Positions 4,386 to 59,006 of a stretch of DNA of 59,006 bases are shown in pieces. Every line of letters starts with the position of its first letter. Position 1 is the first letter of the stretch. A program made the translations under genes and the position numbers. The stretch spans positions 1 through 59,006 of IMG/VR virus record IMGVR_UViG_3300025770_000022; one strand, 5' to 3'. Under the pieces are notes generated by a model, which saw only the letters and a list, made by a program, of their open reading frames with translations, had not been told where the DNA came from and searched no databases. The DNA is from a virus.

Positions 4386-4393
4386 TATTTATA
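4386..4393 (-). promoter_or_regulatory. T4-type late promoter TATAAATA
   Basis: Exact motif in the intergenic gap upstream of the 4351 start. Confidence 0.7.
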
Positions 4394-10400: not shown

Positions 10401-12134
10401 AGAACCCGCATTCGTTATTGTTACTGTATCAACAAATCCAGTAGCATCAATCGTACAAGTCGCTTCGGCTTGAATCGCAGTTCCACCATCAGCAACTAAT
10501 ACTCCGAATGGAGCAGAAATAGATATAGTAGGAACAGATTGATAACCAGTTCCAGGTTCGTCTATAACAATACCCGTGACTGAAGCATCAAATCCTATAG
10601 TGCCAGTTGCACCAGCACCACCTCCGCCAGAGATATACATTGTCGGGATGTTTGTGTATTGAGAACCACCACTATTTAATGTCAATGCTGTTACTACACC
10701 ACCAACAACTGTCGCATCTGCCGAAGCATTTACTGTATTAGAATCATTACCACCTTGGAAGGTGATAACAACTGGAACAGTAGCATTCGGGTCAGTTTCA
10801 ACGTCACCAGACTGAAATGATACTAAGTCAGTAAGTGAAAGGTCGTGATAAAGTGATTCTACTACGTTTTGTGAGCCTGCTCCACCAATTGAGGTACAGA
10901 GTTGAGGCATTATCTGGCTAATATTATAAGAATTAGATAGTGCAGGTAAGGCTACATTAGCGCCATAGTTAATAGGAATCTTGATTGTATCGCCGGGGTT
11001 TAGTCCGTGATTCAATGAATAAACAAATCTGTGGTTAGTCGTACTGGACAATCTTCCTTCTTCGAGCGGGTGAAAAGTACAGTGAAAATATAAATCGTGA
11101 TATCCATCTACTACCCAAGCCCACTGTTCACCAGGTGAAAGGTCAGGAGAAGCAAAGGATATATTATCATCAGAAACAGCATTGTGAACCAATATGTTTG
11201 TATCTGGATTATTAAATATGATTGTGTCGCCTTCTCTCGCTTCGAGATGGTAAGGGACAAGAATATGTGTTTGTGTGTTCGGGTCGTTAATTGCGCCTTC
11301 GAACCAGTGACCGCCTGTACTTGTACAAGCAGTTTCCATTGCGACAATTGAAGTCAGATATTCTGGTGTGATTACTGTCCAAGTCTCGCCAACACCTTCA
11401 CAAGTTGCTTGGTCAGAGATTGAAGGATTATTAGAACAACTGCTACAAGTAGGACGAACTAGAAGTTCGTCTTCTATTACAGAAGCAACAAATGTTCTTG
11501 GGGCTGGTCCACCACCAACTTCTGAGAAAGTCGCTGTATCAGGAGCAAGCATATCGACCATATTTTTAGCACCTGAAATAAGGTCCCAGTTAACATCATT
11601 AACTGTAAGGTCGTATGAAAATTTGTATTGAGTATTTGGTTTAAGATTTGCTTCAAACCAAGCAAGAGCAACCTGTTGACCATCGGTGTAAGCATCAACA
11701 ATCTGAGTTCCCTCAGTAAAGAACCTGTCGAATTGGTATGCAATACCATTCGCCCAAGGACTTGCTACGTTAATTGGTTCATCAAAACCACTATTCTTGA
11801 GCAATTCAACTTCAAACGCATCTGCGGCAAAAGAACTATTTTGAACAAGGTTAGAGGATTCATATGTTATATCGAGACCACCATTCTCAATCATTTCTGT
11901 TGGTGATACGAATTGTTGTGAACGGCCTGCGACATTAATTAGAAAATCTTTATATTCTGGCAAATGTTCTAGGTTTTCCATTACCTCTAAAGACTTCAGC
12001 ATAAGAGCCAAATCCTTAACAAGAAGGTCAGGAGCATCCAATTTAATGTTCAAAGAGTCCAAGAAGGAACTCTTCTGTTGCTCTATAGTGTTTAATTCTA
12101 ATAGACTGAATTTGTGACCTGTATAATGTGCCAT
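4422..12134 (-). CDS. Giant multidomain virion/fibre protein (2570 aa): CBM-like beta-sandwiches, two cupredoxins, His-triad modules, Cys repeats, C-terminal IPT/TIG-like domains
   Basis: HNAV..HCTFHPLEEG and GHPF..YYQCGWHASM cupredoxin motifs; L(L/V)xN(S/G)xF...YxxSYD CBM-like segments; multiple HxH; CSxxxYxxxxxCxxxxGTWT repeats. Confidence 0.8.
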   Translation of the reverse strand: MAHYTGHKFSLLELNTIEQQKSSFLDSLNIKLDAPDLLVKDLALMLKSLEVMENLEHLPEYKDFLINVAGRSQQFVSPTEMIENGGLDITYESSNLVQNSSFAADAFEVELLKNSGFDEPINVASPWANGIAYQFDRFFTEGTQIVDAYTDGQQVALAWFEANLKPNTQYKFSYDLTVNDVNWDLISGAKNMVDMLAPDTATFSEVGGGPAPRTFVASVIEDELLVRPTCSSCSNNPSISDQATCEGVGETWTVITPEYLTSIVAMETACTSTGGHWFEGAINDPNTQTHILVPYHLEAREGDTIIFNNPDTNILVHNAVSDDNISFASPDLSPGEQWAWVVDGYHDLYFHCTFHPLEEGRLSSTTNHRFVYSLNHGLNPGDTIKIPINYGANVALPALSNSYNISQIMPQLCTSIGGAGSQNVVESLYHDLSLTDLVSFQSGDVETDPNATVPVVITFQGGNDSNTVNASADATVVGGVVTALTLNSGGSQYTNIPTMYISGGGGAGATGTIGFDASVTGIVIDEPGTGYQSVPTISISAPFGVLVADGGTAIQAEATCTIDATGFVDTVTITNAGSEYTGPPAVTFVGGSPTVNALATGSVDGSITSLTLEQGGTGYGSGGSTTGGGAVVGVGERKWEDYIITAVQKGDARVDVFFDDVNVIGHIHTGELTTAEYATIQTGTNVISMSTTDGTGSGDNSPHAHSVTYNWDPALNNGAGGMYIVGMTGSHTHGMSEYYVIEGGTNIELTNFGHYHQLLLDITDEATLKASPLTGVTQDTDGTWSHTGGATKIGTSNYGTSDPQHFHTVEFGCIDPANDTYLIISIDQHIHDFDRVYYPGSSQFTVGKYDFALGGDDLNPSTIATPFTDIAGYVKKERGIESDGHQLKAGDKIHYTNVYNGIHHGNTNYFVDYVIDWDHFALTETVIYPLENAPGTTPTFFNVIESYEVVADMASFRYEVERDLTNHVGDPFISGVEVLWSRPRTVKSVNHALSVGDVVQLPSGPQPYTPTELPGAMMNHTVVALGDGYGPTDGFEIIVDTQSTITAADPGQTTVEGAQDSPWFWSWHDMSNISYYPYQRDIAEHEAFGGNEGTAGGFDLFRGGKYTFVNNAWSSSGHVTAPDPFTGVMQDMYMHAAGIKAIPGGGWDNLVQAGMTRGLGEPNEGYHCVNKNASHGLTIETGALNDFVSLEDNPGTWVSDQPFPVCMGLSGWCEELDVTGWYYNGVDDYSVCTALNPNEDVGLAQWRVSQWIGNFSKEFTWKIPEDFGLTGADGVSGFGPFVPPGETNLYYAVEDDGGLYKFDKEGMIEGTNRTLNLYRGATYRFRVNAPGHPFYITTDDGSHFTPGAYFGEYLLGVTGSRGEEGAGVQTDPGSKFGLDAAGVPKYEIVEFTVPSVAPDTLYYQCGWHASMVGTFNIIDIPVVNAGDDIVVYYHHGQENMYTPLHIKDKIQIDNGTGNDYFQVQPEPANAFPVAGTQADLLQLGNLVTATGLGALPKIQAMNIELGTIQYIDPVTMIKGANSEQFLVTNNHEGLAKVYMSVDINQRSNILLDNVSFKEVVWTETGSWEVNGGTAHTTDGTAAHIEQLVTGTVQDGITYEIQYDIIESFKDVFGAENGTLTASLMGDTTIVGTANTLVGHYSETVVAPNNTAILRLSNTGIGKIDNISIRERVTGQNAWYMGEGWQSINGKAYLDGTILSDTEINQTVVFTPGKLYEVKYTLADMDPSDNGMTGRLRVALGSDTTHKIANWNLDIVDPLQINWTASGVDVSITNAVMNFNSSVNGTMTYTLENNLVKNSSYETTLDCVLETHNILTFQVGPGPNGSHSHQFQITQVDADWLMADATRTRTFPQTDAYHADTYTHEFTISYDTGSYILVSQTIPEGHETLALIGTSANNPSIEILIGGVLQKTITTSGIHHLDLIGEASDQFVLRMNGTGLINSVSLHEEDIPVLDADTTGLVPSGQRTHHVRAGSADSKIHFISTVDNNRPENYSPYYTNTGFQGSIDDVSVREIEEKWTFSPQQGAEAYVNQNTQQIYTSGVGTSARGIAHISFEVTDKLNYKVSFDIDRPTDSIVKIGPTPDSDAYGSMVIAANDTDGSKDFIFTAPVTGNAFLTLSTTGNGFTYWDNISVKSVPNLSSDEYLLLARSMNVFGVPIGGEERWANNHLDMKNADYVGQPIAGMRTLESFGESVVEDYYDVNKRSNEILNPPIMISTMSIEFGNRAVSAITPSCSNPLYYNSVDCETINGAWTGLATEFCSDGIYTTEAGCVEPFGTWTAGSCSASANNTEADCIMEGTCSNPVYNNNETNCLAQGTCSIGSYYDQVSCENNAGTWTSANNTWTSANNTWTPGTCTDVSYTTEATCIAPRGTWTPEVPAHCSDANFTTEAECIAPRGTWDTTVVSAMAGDTVEVVGDGIDPLWTITLGGVEQVSQAVLLPTKVNFVINPLTPLGDQEFIITNTDGDTATAPTLFNVRDTLRIISVTEIDPSNWFILGAGFVSGGNGTVVWVELTSTPGTGPVANSPSYQFTDVNNLAMVDDQGGLASGTYDVIVENADGTQFREVSSLVIP
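5086..5132. repeat. 21-bp tandem repeat (2 exact copies + 5 bp) encoding TWTSANN
   Basis: gtccaagtattattcgctgaa at 5086-5106 and 5107-5127, then gtcca. Confidence 0.95.
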
Positions 12135-12582: not shown

Positions 12583-15500
12583 CTATGTCAGTGTCAATAC
12601 TCTCATCTCTCGTACTGCTGGTAAATAGCACGGATGAGTCGTATGTAATTCAATTTTAACTCTAAAATGGTCAAATTCGTGAGACACTTTCTTCAATGGA
12701 GTGAAGGTATGCTCAATAAATTCCATATTAGTTTGGATAGATGAGTTTGTAATCGTCACACCACTGTCTTTCATCTCCCTCCACGATACTGGTTCTTCTT
12801 CGATAACAGCAAGTCCGATAGGATAATCAGGATGTTCCGTTGGAACAATTGAATCAATCTCTAGTACAGGAACTTCTTGTTTAGAATATGTGCCATCAGC
12901 ATTAATGACTTTCTCATAAAACTTTCTATTCAAATCATCATCCCAAACTCCGAACCAAACATCTCCAACATCATATAATGAGAGGTCTGTTCCAGCACCT
13001 TGACCAGATGTGGTTACGTCTGAAGTTGCTCCTGCCAAATCTTTTCGACTTATGAAACACGTTCTAATGATTGATTTCATATTAGATATATCAACTAGGT
13101 GCATCATCGTTAAGTTGGCTGGGTCGTCATCACCATCTACATATGCGGTAGAGACTTCAGCACTAACACCCTGTCCAGGATTCGCTATGACTCCGTTCCA
13201 GTTAGCAATACCAGAGCCTTGGGCCGTGATAGTATTTTCAGGACTATTTGCTCCAGAAGGATAAATGTGTGCGTAATACTCTTCAAAATCATTCACGTTG
13301 TAATCACCGTGGGTGATGGTATTCGCATATGGTTGAGTAGTAATATATCTTGGAATAACTGTACCTGTATCGTAGTAAACTTTGACGTATGTATTAGGAA
13401 CTTCTTGTACACTAAGGAACATTTGCAAGTCACTAGCGAAATTCGCCAACTTGACATCCTTAGATTGATAGATTCCCATTTGATTCTTGACAGTTGGAGC
13501 CGTATCGTAAATAATATTATTGACTAGAACTGTGCTTAATCTCTCTTTATTTAGTACAGGAGTAAGATTAGTATTATCGGTTTTAAATGTAGTATTGTAT
13601 GATATTGGAGTATATTGATAACCAGAAGCAATCGTATGACTACCGTCTAGAGATACAACATTTTCAAGTATGACATCTTCGTTATCTAAAACTCCACCAT
13701 ATATATTATTAATATCTCCGTTAACAACACCCTCTATATCTAAACTCGTTCCCGAAAGAACAAGTGGTTGAAAATTGGGCATAAATGATGCCGCTAATTT
13801 AGTATCACCGTATGGCTTCATATCAAGTTGGAGGTCGCCAGTAGGGGTAAAGGCACATTTATTCATATCGAATTTAATGTCTTTTAATTGCTCTGCGGTC
13901 CAAGTTGTGTTATTCTGAGAAGTAAATAGGCTTCCAAGATATGGTTGTTCACTAATATATTTACCACTTAGCAAATCAACTTCTCCTAATTCAGAAATCC
14001 ACATATTATATTTTAGGGAATCCGATATCACAACAAAACAATACTCAGTCCCGTTCATTAGATAAATTGGGTCTGCGAATTGGAATCGTGTGCTTACTGC
14101 TCCCGTTGTGGAAGTAGAAACATCTTCAGGATAAAGCATCTTAGATGCCATCGGCACAACCGTTGTAGTCGGATAACCATTTGACATTGTTCTAATTTCT
14201 ACTCGAACAGGAGTCTCTTCGTCATCTTTTGACCAGAAGAATAAATCGATTGAGTCTACAAATACTCCACCATCTTCGTCTGCTACTAAGAATGATTCTG
14301 CTACTGGGTCATACCACTCTGTTACATTTCTTGTTGTTCTACTTGTTCCAGATGTATCGCTTCTAGAAATTGTTCTGGTTTCACCTAATATAGCCCGAGT
14401 ATCACTTATGGCTTCATCAACCCTGTAACTTTCTAGTGTAGATAGAATATCTCTCTGCCGTCTATCAAGAGTACCAGCAGATGTAAATACTCCTACTGCT
14501 TGTGTAGTCATTAATTCTGGTGAAGTGAAATTGTCTTTCATTGCGAGTATCTTCATACCCGTTCTGATTCTAACTCCGTCTGCACCTTCTGAAGGAATCT
14601 GTAATACTGCGTTTCTTAGTCTACCAGCAGTATCAGTCCAAACAGCGTCACCCATTGCTCCTCCGTCTGGAGTAATATAAGCATCGACATTAATCTCATC
14701 AAATTCAAAGTGCATCTGAGTTGATGGACGTAATTTATCTACATCGATAGTTACAGGTACACTTCTCATCCAAGGAATAGCAGAACTGTCTACAAATCTA
14801 TCACCGACTTGTGTGCGAATATCATTGATTTCCATATGAGACTTCGTACCAGTTCGTAATTGATTATTTGTTTGTTGTTGATTCTGGTCCCAAGTATCAA
14901 CCTTTGTAATTTGTCTCCAAACAGTCCGTTGTCGAGTAGGTCGATTATTAATGGTTCCCGAGCCCCAATGCCTTCCAGTTTCAAATGCTCGTTCAGTAGT
15001 TCCACTGCCACCACCAAAACTAAGATTACCACCAAAGGTGATTGTTTCCGCACCTTCACGAACATTCTGTCTTCCACCAACGTCTGCCCATCCAGACCAT
15101 TGAGTCTGCCAAGCATTCCATCGAGTCTGTGTTCCAAAAGTTTCTACTTGTTGAGTTACAGCATTGTTATTTTCATTCTGAATAATAACATCTGGCATAT
15201 AAAGTTCTTCAAACCAAGTATCAGATTGAGGAGTTAATGTACAGAATCCAACCCAAGATTTACGAGCAAATGGATTCAAGTTAATAACTTGTGACCCCAT
15301 CGGCTGAGTAATCCACGCTTCAATAACATCAAAGTCTAGAGTATATGTCAGATTATTTAATTTAACATTAGATTTTACACCACCTACCATATCCATACCA
15401 TACATTTCGTAGGGTACAGTACATATTCCTGCTTCTGGATAAATAGCACAATAATATGCTTCATCGATAACATCACCAATACCGTGGTCAACAAACGGGT

Positions 15501-18021
15501 CAACTAAGATACCATTTTTATATCTTAGTAATCCTGCCGTGTCAAGCACCTGCATATCGGCAGTAGTCTTTTCTAGAAGATTAAGTGCAGTGTAGTATTC
15601 TAAATTTTCAAGTCTATTTTCTATGCCACGAATATCTTGCATCGTAAATCTTTTATTCTTTACGTGAGATACATTAATATTCTTGTGGTTATATGTGTAC
15701 GCTGGTACAAATATATTATACAAGGTCATCTCATTCAATTCTTCAGTAGGAAGAACTGGTTCAGTAGAAGGGAAGCCTTGTTTAATCTGTATCTTTCCAT
15801 CGTCATTAATTGTCAGTCTATCTTTTCGTGGGAGATAGAAATCATAAGATACTGAGATGTTAGAAGAAGGTAGTGGCAAATATGTGCCAACTGCGTAATC
15901 GTCATCCGATGCTCTAAAGTCCATCCCATCAGCGGAAGGGTGACTCAATCCTGTTGAGTCTCTATATCCAAAAATGTCATCATAAGTGATACCAGAATCT
16001 GTATAACTGTTTACACATCTATATTGAGCGGTTGTGATATTACCAAGAATATAATGTTTATATGTTACTGTATATGTGCCAGGTTGACTTGGGTTAACTG
16101 CATCGTTCCAAGTTAATAGTGCATCGTTCAAAGAAGTATCAGTATCACCAGTTGTGAAGGTAAATGATGAAGTTACATCCGTAGTATCAGGTGCGATAAT
16201 AGAAACAATTTCTTCAACTGCGTGTGCAATTGTTAATGTGTCAGTAAGTGAAAGAACATAATCGGTTGATGTTGTAGATTTTGTCAATGCTCTCCAAGAA
16301 GCATTTGACATATACATATCTGCCATAATAGAGATATTATGTCCAGACAAATTCGTTGATGTGTTACCTGTGACTTGGTCTACTATTTCAATAAGTGCAG
16401 TTGTATTTCCTGTTAAGTCAGCCCTCCACGTATCACCAGAAGCGACAGTACCATATTGAGGTATAACTTGGTTTGTAAATTCGTCCCAGATATAAAGAAC
16501 TCGTTCCCAGTGCATATCATTGAAAACTGCGGGTACTGAAGCAACTGCTCCAGATAAGATAGCGGTTAAATTCTTTTGTGTAGAGTATGTTACTTGTCCT
16601 AGAGATAGTGCAGAAGTAATTGAATGGACCTTATAAATCCAAGGATAATTAACACCCTTACTAACTGCGATACCAGTTGGACGAGAGATTTTTGCGTATA
16701 CATCGGCATTCGTTTCAGAAACAATATATTGAGCGGGTGCGATAGCATCGAGGCCAGTATTGTTTTCTAGATAAATTCTGAATGCGTTGCCGTACTTTGT
16801 AACGTGTGTGATACGTTTTCTTATTCCGATAGTATTAACTGGACTCGTTGCAGAAGTGTAACCCGTGTCAGTAACAAGGATAACATATTCTTTATTCACA
16901 ACATTAAACACGCCGTGCATATCATCAATAGATGCTACTTCAAAGTATGGTCCAAATTCAGGATTGATATGGTCATTCGCTACGTGGCGAGTTGTTCTTG
17001 CCCTATCTGCTTCTACAGTTAGAGGAACTAAGAGTTCGTGTTCATATCCATTAATGTATGCTTTAGATGGGTCAACTTTAATAGAATACTTATCAACCGT
17101 ACTTCCCGTTTTAAATTCAATTGGGAATGGATTAATAGTATAGTTGCCAGACTCATCGAATGTTCGTTGAGCCATTTCATTACTAAGAAGTGAATAGTCA
17201 GTAGCCTCATACTTAGTAGTAATGATGCCATTCGTGACATCCATCATCCACAACCACTTATTAGATTCAGCGGAGTTGGCCTCTGCAATCAATGTAAGAG
17301 AAATTTGATATCTATCTCCACCTGGTGCATTCTGATTATAGAAACCAGAAGCAGGGTCAAGCAATCTTGGGTCAGTCGTTGATGCTACAATAGTTTCTTC
17401 AATATCGAATCCAACTTTTAATGTTGGTGTTGCAGAAATTGGGTCTAAGAAAATAGTTTGTGCTAGAATAGGAGTGAAGAAATTATCTAGCCAATAAACA
17501 CCGTTATCAACTCTTGCTTCTAGTCCTTGTCCTGTTCCTACGATGACGCCTGCTTTATATATTTGAGTCGCATCGTACCAATTGTTATCAGCACATTCAC
17601 CGTTTACATCAAAGCCGCCTTCACAAACAGTATCGTAACTTAATAGATTTTCGTTTGCTTGAAATTGTCCAGAAAGTATTCTGTAGTAATAGATAGGTTG
17701 CGTTTCATCATCGTGAAGTTGAGTAATTTCTGCAACTGCATTAGATGTTTCACCATAAACAATACGATTCAACCAAGAGGTATCAACCACAGCAAGTTGC
17801 ATCCATTCTCTTTTAGCAACACTAACTTCTCCGCCTACAACGGCAGAGCCATTCTTCCATATATGATTCGCAGAAGCGGACATTTGATTCTGAAGAATAG
17901 ATTGTATTTGAGTTAATTCTCTGGCCTGAACTGCTCGACCAGGATTAAACAGAATCTTTAAAAATTTGTCATCCGCATTATAGTCATCATAATATGGAGA
18001 TGTGTTGAAGTTATATGCCAT
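12583..18021 (-). CDS. DUF4815/VrlC-like large virion structural protein (1812 aa)
   Basis: N-terminus NTSPYYDDYNADDKFLKILFNPGRAVQARELTQIQSILQNQ; later RYKNGILVDPF, DPVAESF, SLFTSQNNTTWT motifs. Confidence 0.85.
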   Translation of the reverse strand: MAYNFNTSPYYDDYNADDKFLKILFNPGRAVQARELTQIQSILQNQMSASANHIWKNGSAVVGGEVSVAKREWMQLAVVDTSWLNRIVYGETSNAVAEITQLHDDETQPIYYYRILSGQFQANENLLSYDTVCEGGFDVNGECADNNWYDATQIYKAGVIVGTGQGLEARVDNGVYWLDNFFTPILAQTIFLDPISATPTLKVGFDIEETIVASTTDPRLLDPASGFYNQNAPGGDRYQISLTLIAEANSAESNKWLWMMDVTNGIITTKYEATDYSLLSNEMAQRTFDESGNYTINPFPIEFKTGSTVDKYSIKVDPSKAYINGYEHELLVPLTVEADRARTTRHVANDHINPEFGPYFEVASIDDMHGVFNVVNKEYVILVTDTGYTSATSPVNTIGIRKRITHVTKYGNAFRIYLENNTGLDAIAPAQYIVSETNADVYAKISRPTGIAVSKGVNYPWIYKVHSITSALSLGQVTYSTQKNLTAILSGAVASVPAVFNDMHWERVLYIWDEFTNQVIPQYGTVASGDTWRADLTGNTTALIEIVDQVTGNTSTNLSGHNISIMADMYMSNASWRALTKSTTSTDYVLSLTDTLTIAHAVEEIVSIIAPDTTDVTSSFTFTTGDTDTSLNDALLTWNDAVNPSQPGTYTVTYKHYILGNITTAQYRCVNSYTDSGITYDDIFGYRDSTGLSHPSADGMDFRASDDDYAVGTYLPLPSSNISVSYDFYLPRKDRLTINDDGKIQIKQGFPSTEPVLPTEELNEMTLYNIFVPAYTYNHKNINVSHVKNKRFTMQDIRGIENRLENLEYYTALNLLEKTTADMQVLDTAGLLRYKNGILVDPFVDHGIGDVIDEAYYCAIYPEAGICTVPYEMYGMDMVGGVKSNVKLNNLTYTLDFDVIEAWITQPMGSQVINLNPFARKSWVGFCTLTPQSDTWFEELYMPDVIIQNENNNAVTQQVETFGTQTRWNAWQTQWSGWADVGGRQNVREGAETITFGGNLSFGGGSGTTERAFETGRHWGSGTINNRPTRQRTVWRQITKVDTWDQNQQQTNNQLRTGTKSHMEINDIRTQVGDRFVDSSAIPWMRSVPVTIDVDKLRPSTQMHFEFDEINVDAYITPDGGAMGDAVWTDTAGRLRNAVLQIPSEGADGVRIRTGMKILAMKDNFTSPELMTTQAVGVFTSAGTLDRRQRDILSTLESYRVDEAISDTRAILGETRTISRSDTSGTSRTTRNVTEWYDPVAESFLVADEDGGVFVDSIDLFFWSKDDEETPVRVEIRTMSNGYPTTTVVPMASKMLYPEDVSTSTTGAVSTRFQFADPIYLMNGTEYCFVVISDSLKYNMWISELGEVDLLSGKYISEQPYLGSLFTSQNNTTWTAEQLKDIKFDMNKCAFTPTGDLQLDMKPYGDTKLAASFMPNFQPLVLSGTSLDIEGVVNGDINNIYGGVLDNEDVILENVVSLDGSHTIASGYQYTPISYNTTFKTDNTNLTPVLNKERLSTVLVNNIIYDTAPTVKNQMGIYQSKDVKLANFASDLQMFLSVQEVPNTYVKVYYDTGTVIPRYITTQPYANTITHGDYNVNDFEEYYAHIYPSGANSPENTITAQGSGIANWNGVIANPGQGVSAEVSTAYVDGDDDPANLTMMHLVDISNMKSIIRTCFISRKDLAGATSDVTTSGQGAGTDLSLYDVGDVWFGVWDDDLNRKFYEKVINADGTYSKQEVPVLEIDSIVPTEHPDYPIGLAVIEEEPVSWREMKDSGVTITNSSIQTNMEFIEHTFTPLKKVSHEFDHFRVKIELHTTHPCYLPAVREMRVLTLT

Positions 18022-19174: not shown

Positions 19175-19182
19175 TATTTATA
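19175..19182 (-). promoter_or_regulatory. T4-type late promoter TATAAATA
   Basis: Exact motif between gp7-like and gp8. Confidence 0.65.
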
Positions 19183-19210: not shown

Positions 19211-22200
19211 TTATGCCGGTACTGGCCATACGTTGCTATCGTCTACAGTAGTAGAGTGGACGTGGTCGCCCGCTCCAGAGCCCTGTGTGTTTTGTGACCA
19301 CTGACCACCAATTGGAACACTTCCCAAATATGATATTGTATCGTGGTTGTCATAGTCACTTGTTTGTGATATAATGTTATAAGTAGAACCATTCCACTCT
19401 AATACTAATTCGTGAGTGTATACGGCCGCGTGTGTACTATCTCTCTGTGGTGTAGTTACATAAGTTCCACCAATCAAGGATGTATAATCTGCAACACTTA
19501 TCCAGTAATCGTGGTCGTGGAATCCACCAGTTAGAGAGAATTTATGCACATATGTAGATGTTCCTGGTATAATATCCCATTGTGAAATACCAGCAACTAC
19601 AAATGTTCCCTTTGCTCCCATATTGGGATTAAATTTTATCGTATATCCGTGATAGTGGGAACTTGCTCCGTTTGGAGAATCAAAGAATATAATACCATAG
19701 TTGGCATTCTGAGCATTAATCAAATCATTTGCTTGTGCCAAAGTAATTGGTTCACACGTTCTTCCGACATTAACTCCCGCTGAATCCAAAGAGCATCCAT
19801 CATAAAGCAGGTGGTCGTGACTTCCGATACCAGCAATAAACGATGGTTGCATCTGAACAATGGGCGGGTTGTTTGCCTGAAGGACATTATTTACATAAGT
19901 TTTTCTTTCCGTTAAGTCTTCCACTTCGGAAGTTGTTTGACTTGTCGTAACTTCAGACGTAATAACTGGGTCACCAACCGATGTTTCAGTACCATAATCT
20001 GAATAGTATATAATATCAGTCGTGGTCGTTGTAATCTGGACCGTTGACGTTGTTGTCGTTGTGATTAAATCACTATATGTTACGATAATAGTTGTATCAC
20101 CAGTCGCAGGCGTATCTGGATACGTTGTTGTGACTGGTAGTAATTCGGTTGAAGCCTGCGTAACAACAACACTCGGTGCCGCAGAAAGAACTTCATCAGT
20201 TGATGTAGTCTTCGTTATATATATGCTACCACCAGTTTGCTGTGGTATTGCAACTAGATTTGGATTCCAGTCAATTGTCAAGTTATGCCAGTGAAGTCCT
20301 TCAGCCGCATTCTCAACTACAGATACATAATATTTAGTAGGGTCTTGAAGTGAATCTTCAATGCCACCTTTAATCCAAGTCACTGACCAATCAGCATAGA
20401 ATATATTATAATTAGTATCCCATTTAATTCTGTACTCGTGAAAGTGAGCACCCTCAATTGAATCGTAAATAGTAACACTATCTACAACACCATCAATCAG
20501 TTGCATACCTTGGTCAATCGTCATTCCGTGAGCGTAAGAAATCTGTCCAGTCAAAGCCCCTTCTGCAAATGGTCCCACAACTGTATCATTATGAAAGTGA
20601 GGGTGAGAACCACCTGGATAAGGATATCCAGGAGAAGCAAATGTCGGTAGAATTTCCATCATCTCATTATAACCTGGTCGTGAAAACAGATTAGAGATGT
20701 TCGTTGGATGTGCGTGTGACCTTGGGTCTGCGGAATAGAATTGATGTCCGTCAGATGATTCCCATTTCTCAGTATCTAACGCAACGAAACTTAATGTATT
20801 TGGGTCGTATGTAATTGTGATTCCGTGATAATGGTCTCCGCCTGAGATAGATGTATATGTTTTTACTTCAGTCACTTCACCATTAATCAAATCAGTTGCT
20901 TGATTATCATCTAATGGTAATGCTTGTCTGCCAGTGTGTGTTCCGAGAGTGTCTAATGTTGTTCCGTTAAATGCGTGTAGATGGTCTGGTTCAGAGCCTT
21001 CTAATTTATGCCAATCGTGTGCATTTGATAATGTAACATCAGGAGCAGTATACAATGGTGTACCATTCCAACCAAGATGGGTCGTTATACCATTAACTAA
21101 AAGGGTATGCTCGTGAGTTCGTAGATGTGTATCTACTGCTTCCCATTCTCCAGTACTGTTTTCATCCCACATCTCAGCCATTTCGTCTGCAACAAATTGT
21201 TGCGTAGAAAGATTCCACATAATTTTATATACGTGATAATGTTGATGCTGGCCAGAATCTTCAATAGAAGAATAAACATAAAATGCGTTTACTACTCCAT
21301 TAGCAAGTTCTTCTGCTTGTATTCTCGTAATCGGTACAGCCGTTCTACCATCATTAGCACCAAATGTATCTAGTGTCTCACTATTGAAATAGTGGATGTG
21401 AGCGTTCTCGCCATATTCGTTTGCTCCAAGTATCTCTACTACGGGAGCAGTCTCAATATAAAATGTTCCGTCATCATCGTCATCATCGACAGCAAGATAA
21501 GGCGTATCAGAGCCTGTGTCGTATGGTTCCCAAACTAGAGTTAGAGGATTCAAATGCCATCCAGCAGATGAACCAAGAAGAATATTTTCATCTACTATTC
21601 CAGTCCACGAAGTAATTACAGGATGCAAGTGAGAGACAGGAGTATTATAAGTCCATATAGGGAAGAAAGCATCCCAGTCAGTCATTTCAATATCAGATAT
21701 CTCAGTTGCAGAGAATAATTCTGTGTTAATGTCGTATACTACTTTATATCCGTGAACGTGAGCCGTTTCAGAAGCAGGGATTTGTGAAGATGCACCCGTT
21801 TCTGTAGAGGAATCATATGTATCAGTTAGTTTGTATATATCACAATTCTGTGGGCCAGTTCCTTGATAACTATCAATACCAATTCTTGTAGCCATATAAA
21901 GTTCGCCATTAGTGTCTTCACCTAATGTCAATACAGATTGGTCGTGAGTTGTTAAGTTCAATACAGATGTTGCAGGGTCCCAGAAAGATAAATTCTTTCT
22001 TGTATATCCTACATCGCCATTGTATTCGATAAATGTGAATACATCGTGGTTCTCCATATTCGTTTGTGCTATCAGATTCCAAGTATTGAAAGTCGCATTC
22101 CATATAATGGAGAATGTGTGAGTATAACTTTCAGCGTGAACCGTATCACTCTGAACAACAACAATTGGTGTTCCAGGATTCGCTTGAGCCATCGCAACTT

Positions 22201-25200
22201 GACTCGGAGTTAATATAGCCTCGTGACTATGATTTGCTCCATTGATTGCATTAGGAGTTATTGTGAAGTGTGCAGAAAGTCCATCAGGATTTTCTTCTAG
22301 TGAAAAGAGATGACCAGTAGTACCAGCCCAACTCGTACTCCAATCTCCGAATATGTATTTGCCTTGAAGTCCAGTTAAGTCACTTCCCCTATAGATGAAT
22401 CCACCTAAGATAGAAATACCAGTTCCGTGACTGTACTCGTGAATAGGTGATTTTAAATCAAGAAGAAATGCTTGAGTATTTGCATAGCCTTGGTCTAATG
22501 CCATTTGGTCAATAGTTGCTTGGTCTTCTTCAAAGTAATGATATGCTTCCATTACTCTCCAACCATAGTTGCCGCCCTTTTCGATAATGTTTACTTCTTC
22601 AAATTTATTTTGTCCAACATCAGCCGCCCATAGTTTACCATCTGGAGCAAAAGAGAATCTCCAAGGATTTCTTAATCCGTATGCCCATATCTCTTCTCTA
22701 AACATTGCACCCGCAGTACCGTGTGGTTTTGCATTTACACCAGTGAAGGGGTTATCGGAAGGTATGGAATAAGGTTTATTATTAACTGTGTCTGGTGCGA
22801 CATCAATTCTAAGAATTGTGCCCAATATGTTAGTAGGGTTCTGTGCATTACCATATACTCCGTGTCCGCCGTGACCGCTAGAACTCGAAGTATCTCCCGC
22901 ATTTCCGCCGTCACCGAATCCGATATAGAGATAACCATCTGGGCCAAATACTAATTGACCACCGTTATGATTCATATCAGGTTGTGGCTGTGTGATTAAA
23001 ATTCGTTCAGTAGTAATATCAACTGTCTCTGCCGCAACGTCAGCCGTGAACTCAGCAATGATTGAAGTTGAAAGAGGATATCCGTATGAGCCAGTAGATG
23101 GACCTTGCTCTGTCATATAATAGACATACAAGAGTCCGTTTGTTGCGTAATCTGGATGGAATGCAAGTCCTAGAGCGCCACGTTCATCATATGCACCGAA
23201 TGGCCCGACTCCGATAGTCAGATTAAGAGAAGTGTAGTCGAAAAATAATGATTTGACACCAGACGTAGTATCCATCAAGTGAATGATTCCAGATTGGTCT
23301 ACAATACAGATTTTATCTGGGTCCATCGGATACGCTACAATAGTCGCAATGTCTGTGCCTGTACCCATCTTAACATCCCCTAGTAAATCTCCAGTATCAC
23401 CAGAGCCAGGAACTTGTTGAATATAGTTAGATGAATATAATTCTACCCAGTCTACATTAGGTACTAGCGTAGCAGGGAAAGTCTGTGCGTGTTGGAATGT
23501 AAATGATGCTTCACCAATTGCAGTAGCAACCGTGGCATCATCAAGTTCATTGAATACATTCTGTCCGAGATTCATTGTGTTACCAGAATAATCAACACCG
23601 TCAATTAAACTAGGGTCAACCACAAGTTCTGGTTTATAGTTATAACATATCCACGTAGTAACTGGCGTATATCTAAATCCGTGCGTACAAGGATTACCCA
23701 TAAAGTCAGTATTCATTTCCCAGTCTGATTCGTATGTGACTAGGTACTCGTGATAATGTGCAGAGGTAATTCCATTTGAATCGGCTACCGTACCGCCTTG
23801 GAAGACGCCATTTTCATCTGTCTCAGGGACCCCGTTGGTAGTTATTCCGATACTATCGTAAAGAGTTACGTCTGTGATATCTCCGTCAATTAATTTTCTT
23901 GCATCGGCTCTTGATAGAGGGTCAGATACACGACCACGTTGTCTGTCTACAATTTGACCATCTACAAATCTATGAACGTGACCCGTTGCTTCAGGCAAGA
24001 ATGCAGTCGTATGAACATCTGCAAGGAATTCTGGAATTTCAAAAGCATCAGAATTCATTAATGCTCTTGCTTGAGAATAACTTAGTCCGTGAGCCGTTGC
24101 TTCTTTTCCGTGAACCATTAAATTAGGTATTGCACTTCCATCAAAACTATGAACGTGAAACGCTGCCGCTCCAACACTCATCAATGGAAGTTCAAGTCCT
24201 TTAGTAAGACTTGTAGATACTAGTGGTGCGAAACCATTCTTTCTTCCGTGGGAATGGATTACATTAGGGTTATCAAACGCCTGTATCTGAACCGCATCAA
24301 TAACGTCATTTGTATTCCCGTATACTTTTTTAACTAGTGTGTCTTCTCGACCACTCTCGAATGCGCCGTAACTCTTTTCAGGAGCGTATTCGGCTTCTTG
24401 CATAAACGATTCAACCCATTCAACAACTCTAGAAAGATGTTTGAATACGGACAATTCATAAACGTCACAAGAAATCATTCTACCGTCTGTGGTATTCTCT
24501 AGATTATCCTCAATGCCTAATTCAGTAACAGAAGGTGGGAACTCTTCAATAGGTAGAACTCGGAGAAGATTAGTAAATTCAAATACAACCTTCTCAGGCC
24601 AAGCATTAATCTGGTTCTTGATTTCATCACGGAGAATATTAATTTGATAGAGTTTCTCTGTAAGTTTGGTACCAATAGTCTTGATTTCATTTTTATCAGT
24701 TACTATATCAACCCCTACGTGTTCACCAGGAGCACCCCAATTATCAGGAGTTACTAAGGCAGCCCTTGAATCGAGATTACCCATCATTTCAATGATATAT
24801 TCGTCAAAGCCTTTCTCAATGAAGACTCCAAATCCAGTATGAGCCCTTCCGACTGAACCGTGTTGTTCGCTCTCTTGGTCCCAGATATCAACCGCGACAT
24901 CAAGATAAGAGAATATCGCAATAATCATCTTGACGTAATCGGTAGGTAATTCGATTACCAAATCAACTGTAGACCTAAACGAGAACTCAGCAAATAATTT
25001 CAGTCCAACAGGGTGAACTAGTTTTTTAAGAACTTCTCTATACGACTGAATAGGTACATCACTTCGGATAACATAAGAGAAATCTTGGTAGTAGTCATTA
25101 TCTTGGAGTTTTCTGTCAGAAGACAGGAAGCCGCCAGAGTCAAGCCAGTAACCATTTGTTTTCCAAACGGCCGTCTTGACATTAGGTTGAGTCTCGATAT

Positions 25201-26482
25201 TAACAAGAGCATCACACTCTTCTCGTGTCAAAGGAGGACTACTTACATTTAATAGTATATTGTGTTCTACGTCTTGAAGGGTCTTAGTAATATCGACTAC
25301 TGGGTACCACGAAAGAAACGCACTCTCTCCGAAATAGGGGCTCGCCTTGTCTAACCCATCCGGGTGCAACGCCGCCACACAATCAACCTCAGTAGTAAAC
25401 GTATGAAGAACTGGCCAATCCGTAGAGATACTACAGAATGATTGGCTCGGGTTTTCCCAATAGTTGTTCGCCGCCACGTTAAATAATTTCTCACCTAACT
25501 CAAACTCACCAGTTACTTCTAATAGGTTCAGTTTTGTCCAGTCAGTATCAGTACCATCAATGGTTGCTGTAGCACCAGAGGTTAATCCTTTTATTAGTGA
25601 ACCACCCTCTCTGTGTACCCCTGCCGCGTGTAGGTAATGAACTTCATTTGGATGTCCACTAATATTAATCCATTTATCTGTCCATTTGTGCCCATTGACA
25701 ATACATTCACCCTCTGTCCGAATACCGTCAGAGATGATTAGTGCTTTATAGGGTATAGTGCCAGATGTACCAACGTCTTCCCAGATTTCTTCGTCTTTAA
25801 TGAATACGCCATTTACTTCGGTTAATAGGAGTCGCTCGTAGTCTGTAGTAGAGACTGATTCGTCCATATCCACGAAAGCCGTTGCGCCGCTAATTTGGCC
25901 ACGGATTTTTTTGTTGTAGATAGACCGTACCGTCTCGGCCACGTGTGAGTTATTCGTGTTGCCGAAATAGGGCGATGCAGAATCTAGTGTGGCTTGGTCA
26001 GTTAGTACCGTAATCCATTGTGGCTCATACCATACAGAGCCAGACGCCTTCATCATCCATTGCTTTGGATACATCGTATCAACGTCTGTATTAAAGTCTC
26101 GTCTGAATAGAAACTCTAGGGCAGAAGTAGTACCTTTCTGTCTATAGACAGGTTGGATATTCTTAGCAAGGAAGGACTTGTCAGTAGTCTCTACTGTTGG
26201 GTCTATTGAGGTGTGTGGTGTACCGTGGAGATACTTAGCCTCGAATTCTGGTATGAAATTATCTAGTGCGTGGTCAACATCAATGTTCTGAATCAAATCA
26301 GTTATTTGATTGTACTCGCCTAGTTCCCCATTAACACCAGTCTCTCGTTCCAAGTATTCAAAATACTTGCGAAGGAAAGTGATGAACATAGGATGGTCTT
26401 CCCGTACATAGTCGGGCACCATTCTCTCAACAAAGACCGATAGGAACTTAGCAGGAGATTTAGTAAATTTATCGTTAGCCAT
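19211..26482 (-). CDS. gp7: Baseplate wedge initiator (gp7-like), extended to 2423 aa with His-triad repeats and a glucose/sorbosone dehydrogenase (GSDH) domain
   Basis: VPDYVREDHPMFITFLRKYFEYLE, YRQKGT..LEFLFR, GFLSSDRKLQDNDYYQDFSYVIRS..VHPVGLKLFAEF; position between gp6 and gp8; GSDH motifs HNGGQLVFGPDGYLYIGFGDGG and EIWAYGLRNPWRFSF. Confidence 0.85.
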   Translation of the reverse strand: MANDKFTKSPAKFLSVFVERMVPDYVREDHPMFITFLRKYFEYLERETGVNGELGEYNQITDLIQNIDVDHALDNFIPEFEAKYLHGTPHTSIDPTVETTDKSFLAKNIQPVYRQKGTTSALEFLFRRDFNTDVDTMYPKQWMMKASGSVWYEPQWITVLTDQATLDSASPYFGNTNNSHVAETVRSIYNKKIRGQISGATAFVDMDESVSTTDYERLLLTEVNGVFIKDEEIWEDVGTSGTIPYKALIISDGIRTEGECIVNGHKWTDKWINISGHPNEVHYLHAAGVHREGGSLIKGLTSGATATIDGTDTDWTKLNLLEVTGEFELGEKLFNVAANNYWENPSQSFCSISTDWPVLHTFTTEVDCVAALHPDGLDKASPYFGESAFLSWYPVVDITKTLQDVEHNILLNVSSPPLTREECDALVNIETQPNVKTAVWKTNGYWLDSGGFLSSDRKLQDNDYYQDFSYVIRSDVPIQSYREVLKKLVHPVGLKLFAEFSFRSTVDLVIELPTDYVKMIIAIFSYLDVAVDIWDQESEQHGSVGRAHTGFGVFIEKGFDEYIIEMMGNLDSRAALVTPDNWGAPGEHVGVDIVTDKNEIKTIGTKLTEKLYQINILRDEIKNQINAWPEKVVFEFTNLLRVLPIEEFPPSVTELGIEDNLENTTDGRMISCDVYELSVFKHLSRVVEWVESFMQEAEYAPEKSYGAFESGREDTLVKKVYGNTNDVIDAVQIQAFDNPNVIHSHGRKNGFAPLVSTSLTKGLELPLMSVGAAAFHVHSFDGSAIPNLMVHGKEATAHGLSYSQARALMNSDAFEIPEFLADVHTTAFLPEATGHVHRFVDGQIVDRQRGRVSDPLSRADARKLIDGDITDVTLYDSIGITTNGVPETDENGVFQGGTVADSNGITSAHYHEYLVTYESDWEMNTDFMGNPCTHGFRYTPVTTWICYNYKPELVVDPSLIDGVDYSGNTMNLGQNVFNELDDATVATAIGEASFTFQHAQTFPATLVPNVDWVELYSSNYIQQVPGSGDTGDLLGDVKMGTGTDIATIVAYPMDPDKICIVDQSGIIHLMDTTSGVKSLFFDYTSLNLTIGVGPFGAYDERGALGLAFHPDYATNGLLYVYYMTEQGPSTGSYGYPLSTSIIAEFTADVAAETVDITTERILITQPQPDMNHNGGQLVFGPDGYLYIGFGDGGNAGDTSSSSGHGGHGVYGNAQNPTNILGTILRIDVAPDTVNNKPYSIPSDNPFTGVNAKPHGTAGAMFREEIWAYGLRNPWRFSFAPDGKLWAADVGQNKFEEVNIIEKGGNYGWRVMEAYHYFEEDQATIDQMALDQGYANTQAFLLDLKSPIHEYSHGTGISILGGFIYRGSDLTGLQGKYIFGDWSTSWAGTTGHLFSLEENPDGLSAHFTITPNAINGANHSHEAILTPSQVAMAQANPGTPIVVVQSDTVHAESYTHTFSIIWNATFNTWNLIAQTNMENHDVFTFIEYNGDVGYTRKNLSFWDPATSVLNLTTHDQSVLTLGEDTNGELYMATRIGIDSYQGTGPQNCDIYKLTDTYDSSTETGASSQIPASETAHVHGYKVVYDINTELFSATEISDIEMTDWDAFFPIWTYNTPVSHLHPVITSWTGIVDENILLGSSAGWHLNPLTLVWEPYDTGSDTPYLAVDDDDDDGTFYIETAPVVEILGANEYGENAHIHYFNSETLDTFGANDGRTAVPITRIQAEELANGVVNAFYVYSSIEDSGQHQHYHVYKIMWNLSTQQFVADEMAEMWDENSTGEWEAVDTHLRTHEHTLLVNGITTHLGWNGTPLYTAPDVTLSNAHDWHKLEGSEPDHLHAFNGTTLDTLGTHTGRQALPLDDNQATDLINGEVTEVKTYTSISGGDHYHGITITYDPNTLSFVALDTEKWESSDGHQFYSADPRSHAHPTNISNLFSRPGYNEMMEILPTFASPGYPYPGGSHPHFHNDTVVGPFAEGALTGQISYAHGMTIDQGMQLIDGVVDSVTIYDSIEGAHFHEYRIKWDTNYNIFYADWSVTWIKGGIEDSLQDPTKYYVSVVENAAEGLHWHNLTIDWNPNLVAIPQQTGGSIYITKTTSTDEVLSAAPSVVVTQASTELLPVTTTYPDTPATGDTTIIVTYSDLITTTTTSTVQITTTTTDIIYYSDYGTETSVGDPVITSEVTTSQTTSEVEDLTERKTYVNNVLQANNPPIVQMQPSFIAGIGSHDHLLYDGCSLDSAGVNVGRTCEPITLAQANDLINAQNANYGIIFFDSPNGASSHYHGYTIKFNPNMGAKGTFVVAGISQWDIIPGTSTYVHKFSLTGGFHDHDYWISVADYTSLIGGTYVTTPQRDSTHAAVYTHELVLEWNGSTYNIISQTSDYDNHDTISYLGSVPIGGQWSQNTQGSGAGDHVHSTTVDDSNVWPVPA

Positions 26483-28702: not shown

Positions 28703-28710
28703 TATTTATA
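28703..28710 (-). promoter_or_regulatory. T4-type late promoter TATAAATA
   Basis: Exact motif upstream of gp25. Confidence 0.7.
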
Positions 28711-36122: not shown

Positions 36123-36136
36123 TATTTATATAAATA
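36123..36136. promoter_or_regulatory. Back-to-back overlapping late promoters (palindrome TATTTATATAAATA)
   Basis: TATAAATA on the minus strand (36123-36130) and plus strand (36129-36136) between divergent gp48 and gp4. Confidence 0.75.
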
Positions 36137-57513: not shown

Positions 57514-57954
57514 TTAACTAGCACCATTAATATTAATAGTCCTAGGCTTATCTTCTTCCGGAATCACAATGTCCATATTGATTGTCAATAGACCATCAGT
57601 AAGGTCAGCATCTTTAATTTGAACGCTGTCACCGATAGTAAATTGGCTTCGGAAACTGCGATTTGCAATTCCCCTATGAATCACATCTTCTGTACTTTCA
57701 TCTTCTGGCTTTTTACCAGATACAGTCAATACGTTCTTTTCAAGAACTGCGGATAGTTCATCCATCTTCCATCCAGCAAGAGCAAACTCTAATACATAAG
57801 TTGTATCGGTTTTCACGATATTGTACGGAGGGTACTTCTGATTGGGTTGGTGATTGAATTGTTCCATCGCTTGAAAGATATTGTCAAGTCCGAAGGATTG
57901 GTGTGTCCACGGGTCGAAAAACCCTTGTGGGGTAGTGAGTTGTTGCCTTGTCAT
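57514..57954 (-). CDS. hsp20: Small heat-shock protein (alpha-crystallin/Hsp20)
   Basis: KYPPYNIVK..LEFALAGW..LTVSG..IHRGIANRSFRSQF..ADLTDGLLTI..IPEEDKPRTINI; GAGGAG RBS before ATG 57954. Confidence 0.95.
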   Translation of the reverse strand: MTRQQLTTPQGFFDPWTHQSFGLDNIFQAMEQFNHQPNQKYPPYNIVKTDTTYVLEFALAGWKMDELSAVLEKNVLTVSGKKPEDESTEDVIHRGIANRSFRSQFTIGDSVQIKDADLTDGLLTINMDIVIPEEDKPRTININGAS

Positions 57955-58045
57955 AATTGTCTCCTCAATGAGCAAGATTAAAATATGTAGCCTCGAAAGA
58001 ACTACGTCTAGTATCAACTTCTAAGTCCCGAAGGCATCTCAGATG
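57955..58045 (-). promoter_or_regulatory. ROSE-like RNA thermometer in the hsp20 5' UTR
   Basis: UCUUGCUC-AUU-GAGGAGA hairpin pairs the SD with a bulged G in UUGCU; two upstream UUCG-capped hairpins. Confidence 0.6.
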
Positions 58046-58204
58046 TTAATCTTTTGGTTGCACCGCAAACAACCAGTCGGGGGAAAGATTTTGACAAATC
58101 AGACTAGGTGACCCCTTTTCTCGAAATGTTGGACTATCTATGCTGTCTCTTTTAATACTTCTACAGTCACGGCCACTTACACATCTCTGAACCTACCACG
58201 GTTT

Positions 58205-58545
58205 TTTAATTCTGTGAGGGGTTATTTTGTTATAAGGTAACCCCTCTGAAATCCTCAACTAGCCCTTATGCGGCTAGTGCGTATGTCTCTGAATCTACAG
58301 TTACATTTATTTATACAAAGTTTGCGACATTTGTATACGTTGTCGAGCGAATAATTTACCACACTATCTAATCGAATCCTAGTACACCCCCATCATAAAA
58401 ATCCTCATTAAAGTAGTCATACGTGGCCCGGACGCTGTACTTGTCGGACAGGCATACTAAAACAAGGATTCTTATGGTGGAGGTGACGGGATTTGCACCC
58501 GTGTCTTAAATAACTAGTAAATTAAATTTACGCTGTTATAACCTC
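58205..58545 (-). ncRNA. ssrA: Circularly permuted (two-piece) tmRNA gene: acceptor piece about 58545-58475, intervening segment 58474-58392, coding piece 58391 to about 58205; tag (A)VTVDSETYALAA at 58304-58266
   Basis: T-arm ACGGG-UGCAAAU-CCCGU then CACCUCC-ACCA; downstream GGGGGUG pairs 7/7 with a G3:U70 wobble; GGAUUCGA; pk1 (CGACA/UGUCG, UAUACAA/UUGUAUA); AUAAAU resume context; YALAA-stop. Confidence 0.92.
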
Positions 58546-58566
58546 ATTAATACGTTATATTTGCAC

Positions 58567-58650
58567 CTACGTGCAGACGTACCTACCAAATAAAATACCA
58601 ATCATTGTCATCATAAACATCCATTTATAACAACATTTATTCATACCCAT
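58567..58650 (-). CDS. 27-aa hydrophobic peptide (MGMNKCCYKWMFMMTMIGILFGRYVCT)
   Basis: AAGGAG RBS; lies between the late promoter and tmRNA. Confidence 0.5.
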   Translation of the reverse strand: MGMNKCCYKWMFMMTMIGILFGRYVCT

Positions 58651-58718: not shown

Positions 58719-58726
58719 TATTTATA
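58719..58726 (-). promoter_or_regulatory. T4-type late promoter TATAAATA upstream of the peptide/tmRNA unit
   Basis: Exact motif overlapping the stop codon of the HD gene. Confidence 0.6.
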
Positions 58727-59006
58727 CATATTCGTTATGGAGAATACGCAAGGCATCCTTCAATTCAAGTATCATTCCTGGTGGAATGCTTCTTATCTCA
58801 AATATGCTAATTAAAGTGGTGTAATACCAAAACTGATTTTCTTTATCAGCATTGAATATATTCCACAACTCCTCACCAATCACTTGGTAATCAGTAACCA
58901 TATCACGAGCATTTGCAACTTTATCGGCTGCGGCAATTAGAACTGCATCATATGGTGCTTTTCCAATCATTTCAAGATATGCGACTTTTCTGTCTCTCCA
59001 AGGGAG
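58722..59006 (-). CDS. HD-domain hydrolase (RelA/SpoT HD / Mesh1-like), 5'-truncated
   Basis: LPWRDRKVAYLE..AVLIAAADKVANARD..LWNIFNA..WYY. Confidence 0.75.
   Translation of the reverse strand, partial: LPWRDRKVAYLEMIGKAPYDAVLIAAADKVANARDMVTDYQVIGEELWNIFNADKENQFWYYTTLISIFEIRSIPPGMILELKDALRILHNEYV

Follow-up and report, generated by a model that had tools for sequence, protein, structure and literature searches.

A circularly permuted tmRNA gene upstream of hsp20 in a fragment of a divergent T4-like myophage, very probably a functional phage copy of ssrA

Does the minus-strand locus close to the end of this viral DNA encode a complete tmRNA in circularly permuted form, does it belong to a phage, and would it work there as an ssrA gene? 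The stretch analyzed here (the window) is a whole IMG/VR record, linear, 59,006 bp long and with a CheckV completeness of 27%, in which an earlier note had proposed a complete permuted tmRNA gene of a phage, to be checked with ARAGORN or the Rfam permuted models. Both gave positive calls, and T4-type tail and baseplate genes lie alongside. ARAGORN calls a single permuted tmRNA on the minus strand (58175-58567) and reads its tag as VTVDSETYALAA, and the Rfam model RF04321 (tmRNA_permuted) matches 58266-58534 on the same strand over model positions 1-213 of 213, with a score of 79.1 bits (E = 1.5e-13) against a cut-off of 47 bits. The complete permuted gene spans 58215-58534 on the minus strand, and its order, read directly from the sequence, is as follows.

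58475-58534, minus strand: acceptor (3' tRNA-like) piece, comprising helix-2 strands, T-arm, acceptor 3' strand, discriminator A and CCA (ARAGORN, Rfam and direct reading)
58486-58502, minus strand: T-arm, with stem ACGGG/CCCGU and loop UGCAAAU
58479-58485, minus strand: acceptor 3' strand CACCUCC, part of the acceptor piece
58478, minus strand: discriminator A, 5' of the encoded CCA
58475-58477, minus strand: encoded CCA, the end of the acceptor piece
58392-58474, minus strand: intervening sequence (spacer) of 83 nt between the acceptor and coding pieces, presumed lost on maturation
58215-58391, minus strand: coding piece (5' tRNA-like and mRNA-like) of 177 nt, from G1 of GGGGGUG at 58391 to the end of the 3' hairpin
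58312-58345, minus strand: pseudoknot PK1, with stem 1 CGAC/GUCG and stem 2 UAUAC/GUAUA, preceding the resume codon
58266-58304, minus strand: tag reading frame, with GUA resume codon, 12 codons (VTVDSETYALAA) and a final GCA followed by the UAA stop
58258-58278, minus strand: stop-codon hairpin ACUAGCC/GGCUAGU with the UAA in its loop, equivalent to helix 5 (minimum-energy fold)
58216-58246, minus strand: 3'-terminal hairpin GAGGGGUUA/UAACCCCUC with the conserved loop ACCUUAUAACAAAA

The acceptor piece with its CCA precedes the GGGGGUG piece, as the earlier note had claimed, and the perfect acceptor stem described there is present as seven base pairs (GGGGGUG/CACCUCC, including G3:U70), followed by the discriminator A and CCA. 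Within the coding piece, GGAUUCGA forms the D-loop analogue, accompanied by an AAGAC element in the tRNA-like domain, and is joined by helix-2 strands, PK1, the tag frame, the stop-codon hairpin and the 3' hairpin, whose loop motif is common to alpha- and beta-type phage tmRNAs. Helix 2 connects the two pieces in three segments (AGCG/CGCU, AAUUUACU/GGUAAAUU and a 6-bp segment adjoining the tRNA-like domain); PK1 and the helix-2 complementarity had both been predicted, and the predicted helix-2 pairing is better than that in the Rfam alignment. The proposed tag, with its GUA resume codon and YALAA end, agrees with the frame read at 58304-58266, the GUA being clade-specific. The T-loop is UGCAAAU rather than UUC..., a UGC variant that occurs in 21 of 43 permuted and 1 of 34 standard viral tmRNAs (L003-L122) among the IMG/VR matches listed.

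Evidence that the gene belongs to a phage comes from the DNA around it. The large open reading frames (ORFs) of the window match T4-type baseplate wedge, hub, tail-tube cap and tail proteins, and the gp6-like baseplate protein shares at most about 35% identity with its counterparts in Mosig, HTVC008M, Melnitz, a Desulfovibrio phage and cyanomyophages. Judged from these matches and this low identity, the window is a fragment of a large, divergent T4-like myophage with a lytic-type context. A blastn search of the locus against 50,697 phage records returned no match, and the permuted tmRNA is the sole RNA gene that ARAGORN finds in the window, with no tRNA gene. Three giant minus-strand ORFs lie among the baseplate genes (4422-12134, 12583-18021 and 19211-26482, of 2570, 1812 and 2423 aa) and are probably baseplate or fiber proteins; the 1812-aa product matches phrog_358 and phrog_877, both of unknown function.

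The gene recurs in other viral DNA. One contig (L002) represents the same phage from another sample, carries a gene identical save for two spacer bases, and extends past the end of the window. An IMG/VR search with the downstream Hsp20 protein identified four contigs (93-67% identity), all four of which have a permuted tmRNA directly upstream of hsp20, and a search with the resume-region pattern added one further member, so that five related viral contigs carry a permuted tmRNA at this same place. Another pattern match (L130) was rejected as a chance match inside a coding region, not a tmRNA. This recurrence bears on whether the locus could be host DNA brought in by misassembly, or an attP-type ssrA fragment of a temperate element. 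The gene does lie less than 500 bp from the contig end, and tmRNA genes are common integration sites (PMC4131195 and the available text of PMC9004378). Against such an origin, L002 continues through the window's end into the HD_4, GroES and nrdAB genes, phage genes flank it at this position in four further contigs, all from other samples, and no cellular tmRNA resembling the coding piece was found among 120 bacterial loci, of the matches listed. Both halves and the tag are intact and no integrase was found in the record, which agrees with the earlier note's view that an attP-type fragment is unlikely, and we give a non-phage origin almost no credence.

To the presence of the gene, comparison within the clade adds evidence of selection. 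Using six distinct clade sequences from different samples (alignment A3) and a 48-pair structure, 92.7% of the proposed pairs hold, compared with 43-48% after a shift of the partners by 1-3 columns, and 14 pairs have changed on both sides, a number reached in 0 of 500 shuffles. The G3:U pair is invariant in all six sequences, and acceptor pair 6 covaries between U:A and C:G. Both-sided changes were also found at two pairs of the T-stem (100% paired), at six of the eight pairs of the middle helix-2 segment, at two pairs of the 3'-terminal hairpin (88.9% paired) and at one pair of PK1 stem 1 (100% paired; G:C in three members and A:U in three), with PK1 stem 2 being 90% paired and mostly invariant. 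At the position of the stop-codon hairpin, three relatives (L123, L124 and L125) have hairpins of different sequence, as seen by eye in the alignment. Because compensatory helix changes, the invariant G3:U and the tag frame have been kept while the coding pieces are only about 70-82% identical to one another, the comparison indicates that the gene is under purifying selection and that its structure is beyond chance. The same compensatory changes, found in every helix, speak against a decaying, nonworking relic. Such a relic might be suspected from the general-model scores, the lowest among the phage tmRNAs examined (75-89 versus 90-151 bits), and from the unusual UGC T-loop and GUA resume codon, but given this conservation we regard it as extremely unlikely.

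The tag itself shows where the clade has varied. Clade tags have 12, 12, 12, 16 and 19 codons and are all in frame, such that insertions and deletions are of whole codons, and they end in YALAA (as in the window), YAIAA, VALAA or MALAA. For one relative (L124), the ARAGORN tag GNTDTYALAA was replaced by VTGNTDTYALAA from resume-region homology. The GUA codon stands at the exact position where 41 other viral permuted tmRNAs mostly carry GCA, with UAAAU|GUA in register with their UAAA(U/C)|GCA, and GUA occurs only in the window's clade; on this alignment, the GUA resume codon is a real, clade-specific and small variation. With GUA as the resume codon, the tag begins V-T in place of the A-N-D that SspB-type adaptor proteins recognize in studied bacteria.

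An atypical resume codon and tag start are also what might point to a decoy role, in which the RNA would sequester SmpB or alanyl-tRNA synthetase and thereby inhibit trans-translation by the host, in the manner of the tag-less RNAs of the mycobacteriophage DS6A type, which consist of a tRNA-like domain only and inhibit tmRNA (PMC4131195, PMC11915505). A decoy, however, would need none of the PK1, resume context, in-frame tag, stop-codon hairpin and ALAA end that are conserved here, making this role very improbable. We conclude that the gene is very probably a functional phage copy of ssrA in the circularly permuted form. The sequence elements, their conservation, the covariation and the phage context are direct observations; processing, charging, reliance on host SmpB, tagging and proteolysis, as set out below, are projected from established tmRNA biology. 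Counted against function are the UGC T-loop and a GUA rather than GCN resume codon, neither of which is known to block it.

We propose that the functional gene would be transcribed as a single precursor containing the acceptor piece, the 83-nt spacer and the coding piece. The spacer ends form a closing stem of 10-14 bp that would pair in the precursor and lengthen the acceptor stem, and the RNA would therefore resemble a tRNA precursor. In the clade as a whole, 94.9% of the closing-stem pairs hold (42-64% in slid controls) and five pairs have changed on both sides, and the spacer is as short as 45 nt or as long as 176 nt. The spacer of the window forms a stable hairpin (z = -3.3) and has no credible ORF (12 codons at most). 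The combination of a variable interior with ends that always close fits a segment excised by tRNA-processing enzymes, and the covarying closing stem provides a concrete prediction of how the precursor would be presented to RNase P. As a separate observation, three relatives (L125, L126 and L129) have a spacer of about 175 nt containing an ORF of 53 codons (L125:3576-3737, plus strand, and the equivalent place in the other two) that encodes a basic, CxxC-containing protein and stops 2 nt before G1 of the coding piece; since the L125 and L129 copies have 17 synonymous and 8 nonsynonymous codon differences, it looks like a genuine gene.

Host RNase P would cut the precursor before G1 (58391) and host 3'-end enzymes would trim it to the encoded CCA (58475), with loss of the spacer, leaving RNAs of about 60 and 177 nt that would stay joined through the acceptor stem and helix 2. 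Charging by host alanyl-tRNA synthetase would be directed by G3:U70 and the A discriminator, and the charged RNA, with host SmpB and EF-Tu, would enter ribosomes that have stalled on broken mRNAs. We assume here that the SmpB is supplied by the host. In agreement with the earlier note, the window yielded no smpB, and neither did the five related contigs, all of these being fragments of 10-27% completeness. Translation would resume at GUA, add (A)VTVDSETYALAA and stop at UAA, freeing the ribosome and releasing a product that would end in AVTVDSETYALAA and whose ALAA terminus would direct it to host ClpXP-type proteases. The most likely benefit to the phage, in our analysis, would be that ribosomes are kept available while host and phage mRNAs are degraded.

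The protease-recognized end of the tag, kept throughout the clade as ALAA (with the AIAA variant included), also fits a tmRNA that serves mainly as a degradation tool, tagging host or early phage proteins for amino-acid recycling, an idea that the available text of PMC9004378 raises for Melnitz. Since tmRNA acts on stalled ribosomes only, it cannot choose its targets, and nothing in the sequence would give it selectivity. Rescue and degradation are moreover the same reaction and differ in which consequence matters to the phage; we consider degradation unlikely to be the main one, and favor ribosome rescue by a functional ssrA.

The neighborhood of the gene is consistent with such a role. Following the direction of the tmRNA gene, one meets in turn nrdA, nrdB, GroES, a glycine-zipper membrane protein, an HD_4 hydrolase, a 27-codon ORF, the tmRNA and Hsp20, for which the window and its extension in L002 provide the following features and candidate promoter motifs.

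57514-58017, minus strand: Hsp20 small heat-shock protein gene (Pfam PF00011, E = 5.5e-14), directly downstream of the tmRNA
58308-58315, minus strand: UAUAAAUA, immediately 5' of the resume codon; matches the T4 late-promoter consensus exactly and is invariant in six clade members
58567-58650, minus strand: 27-codon hydrophobic ORF MGMNKCCYKWMFMMTMIGILFGRYVCT, preceded by a strong ribosome-binding site (AAGGAG) and located between the HD_4 gene and the tmRNA
58719-58726, minus strand: TATAAATA, candidate T4-type late promoter upstream of the 27-codon ORF and the tmRNA
58722-59006, minus strand: 3' part of the gene for HD_4 (RelA/SpoT-type HD hydrolase), cut by the window's end; full copy at L002:4405-4983

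The full-length HD_4 protein of L002 matches PF13328 (E = 1e-16) and also phrog_990, an HD_4 gene occupies the same place in L124, and its product may be a phage alarmone hydrolase. Among relatives, L124 alone has a 27-codon ORF with a similar C-terminal half. A GroES-type co-chaperonin is encoded beside nrdA and nrdB about 2.2 kb upstream of the tmRNA (L002:2625-2969, plus strand; PF00166, E = 2.4e-14), and both it and HD_4 share the strand of the tmRNA. Together, hsp20, GroES and HD_4 as neighbors fit a role in translation and proteostasis.

How the gene would be expressed can be approached through its promoter motifs. The T4 late-promoter motif TATAAATA occurs 12 times in the window, against 5.1 copies expected, mostly 28-70 nt upstream of the starts of structural genes (for example, at 729-736, 4386-4393, 19175-19182, 28703-28710 and 36123-36130, all on the minus strand), which suggests that this divergent phage uses T4-type late promoters. 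The copy at 58719-58726 is a weak promoter call because the motif is not conserved in the relatives. A scan for sigma-70-type promoters and intrinsic terminators gave counts not above those of shuffles, with nothing convincing directly upstream of the tmRNA, and a sigma-70-type hit in the spacer (58420-58392) was rejected, as its start would fall inside the acceptor stem. Inside the gene, the UAUAAAUA motif at the resume region is found only in the window's clade among 41 viral permuted tmRNAs (38 others are without it), and could be a mere tmRNA constraint or could also drive late transcription of hsp20, which lies about 290 nt downstream.

Can the form of the gene identify the lineage of the host? 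Other phage tmRNAs sort cleanly, alpha-type genes scoring 68-107 bits on alpha_tmRNA and beta-type genes 122-152 bits on beta_tmRNA (152 and 122 bits for L003 and L118, respectively). The window gene ties, with 51.4 bits on RF01849 (alpha_tmRNA), barely over the cut-off of 50, and 51.5 bits on RF01850 (beta_tmRNA), below the cut-off of 84, and RF01851 (cyano_tmRNA, cut-off 70) gave no match in the window at E values up to 10. Of the five other distinct clade members scanned, L124 alone also reached the alpha_tmRNA cut-off (54.3 bits). The UGC T-loop was rejected as a guide to host or donor lineage, since the bacterial matches listed that carry it come from many phyla (Elusimicrobiota, Acidobacteriota, Bacillota and others) and are mostly standard-form genes. 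According to the available text of PMC9004378, the two-piece tmRNA of Melnitz is alpha-type and differs from the one in its OM43 host; a phage tmRNA type need not match the host, and we therefore draw no host inference from tmRNA form. The earlier suggestion that the permuted form is a clue to host lineage is weakened by this mismatch, by the alpha/beta tie and by the lack of a cyanobacterial match. One could go further and propose that the clade represents a phage-specific two-piece tmRNA lineage with a phage-retuned tag, rather than a recent alpha- or betaproteobacterial copy, in which the internal UAUAAAUA DNA may double as a late promoter for hsp20; we put this forward as a doubtful, speculative reading. 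If the tag were retuned in this way, its V-T start could make the handling of tagged proteins differ from that of host-tagged ones.

Two-piece tmRNAs of this kind are known from phages. In the available text of Buchholz et al. 2022 (PMC9004378), 402 phage genomes yield 133 unique tmRNAs, of which 53 are two-piece, and 50 of these 53 belong to marine or aquatic phages; a tmRNA database of 2025 holds 79 unique bacteriophage sequences (PMC11915505). Our IMG/VR scan for a matching T-arm and acceptor gave 43 permuted and 34 standard forms among the 120 matches listed, and the statement in the earlier note that phage tmRNAs are mostly one-piece is, on both counts, out of date. Melnitz (whose gene is annotated as SsrA in GenBank), Mosig and HTVC008M all pass RF04321, with 113, 94 and 91 bits, respectively, versus 79 for the window. 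With these published two-piece genes, the three named phages and the further IMG/VR loci, the kind is known and common in aquatic phages, and the window gene adds a well-supported but somewhat divergent member.

Like the window, Melnitz, Mosig and HTVC008M have the permuted order in a T4-like myophage, a single pseudoknot, a short tag with an ALAA terminus and a 3' hairpin whose loop resembles that of the window, and no phage smpB is reported for them in the available text of PMC9004378. They differ in being clearly alpha-type (106.7, 67.6 and 83.8 bits on alpha_tmRNA, against the tie at about 51 in the window) and in the start of the tag, which ARAGORN gives as A-N in Melnitz and HTVC008M and G-E in Mosig, whereas GUA yields V-T in the window's clade. 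Their gp6 baseplate proteins are only about 35% identical to that of the window. The glutamine riboswitch at the 3' end of the Melnitz gene (52.8 bits, our positive control) is absent from the window, and the neighbors in Melnitz and HTVC008M are PhoH, a nuclease and a late-transcription coactivator, in place of HD_4 and hsp20.

Among bacteria, Sharkady and Williams reportedly described in 2004 the two-piece tmRNA of a betaproteobacterial lineage. The two-piece tmRNA of Alphaproteobacteria (Caulobacter) goes back to Keiler, Shapiro and Williams 2000, as cited in PMC11915505 and in the available text of PMC9004378. The window gene shares with the bacterial genes a CCA-ending acceptor piece, a spacer and a coding piece, with the pieces held together by the acceptor stem and helix 2 and one pseudoknot before the tag. 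Maturation by tRNA-processing enzymes is documented for the bacterial two-piece genes and would apply by analogy to this one, which, unlike them, is viral and has a marginal match to the lineage models, a Val resume codon and a UGC T-loop. One-piece phage tmRNAs are represented by the mycobacteriophage Bxz1 group and Bacillus phage G (PMC4131195), which likewise carry an ssrA presumed to work with host SmpB, but have the standard order and four pseudoknot positions and belong to phages of Actinobacteria or Firmicutes.

That two-piece tmRNAs exist in phages, are abundant and show an aquatic bias has already been published, and the gene described here opens no new question. Its position beside hsp20 means that phage two-piece tmRNA genes occupy more than one genomic context, and the setting among hsp20, HD_4 and GroES fits large aquatic phages that bring along their own toolkit for translation and protein quality.
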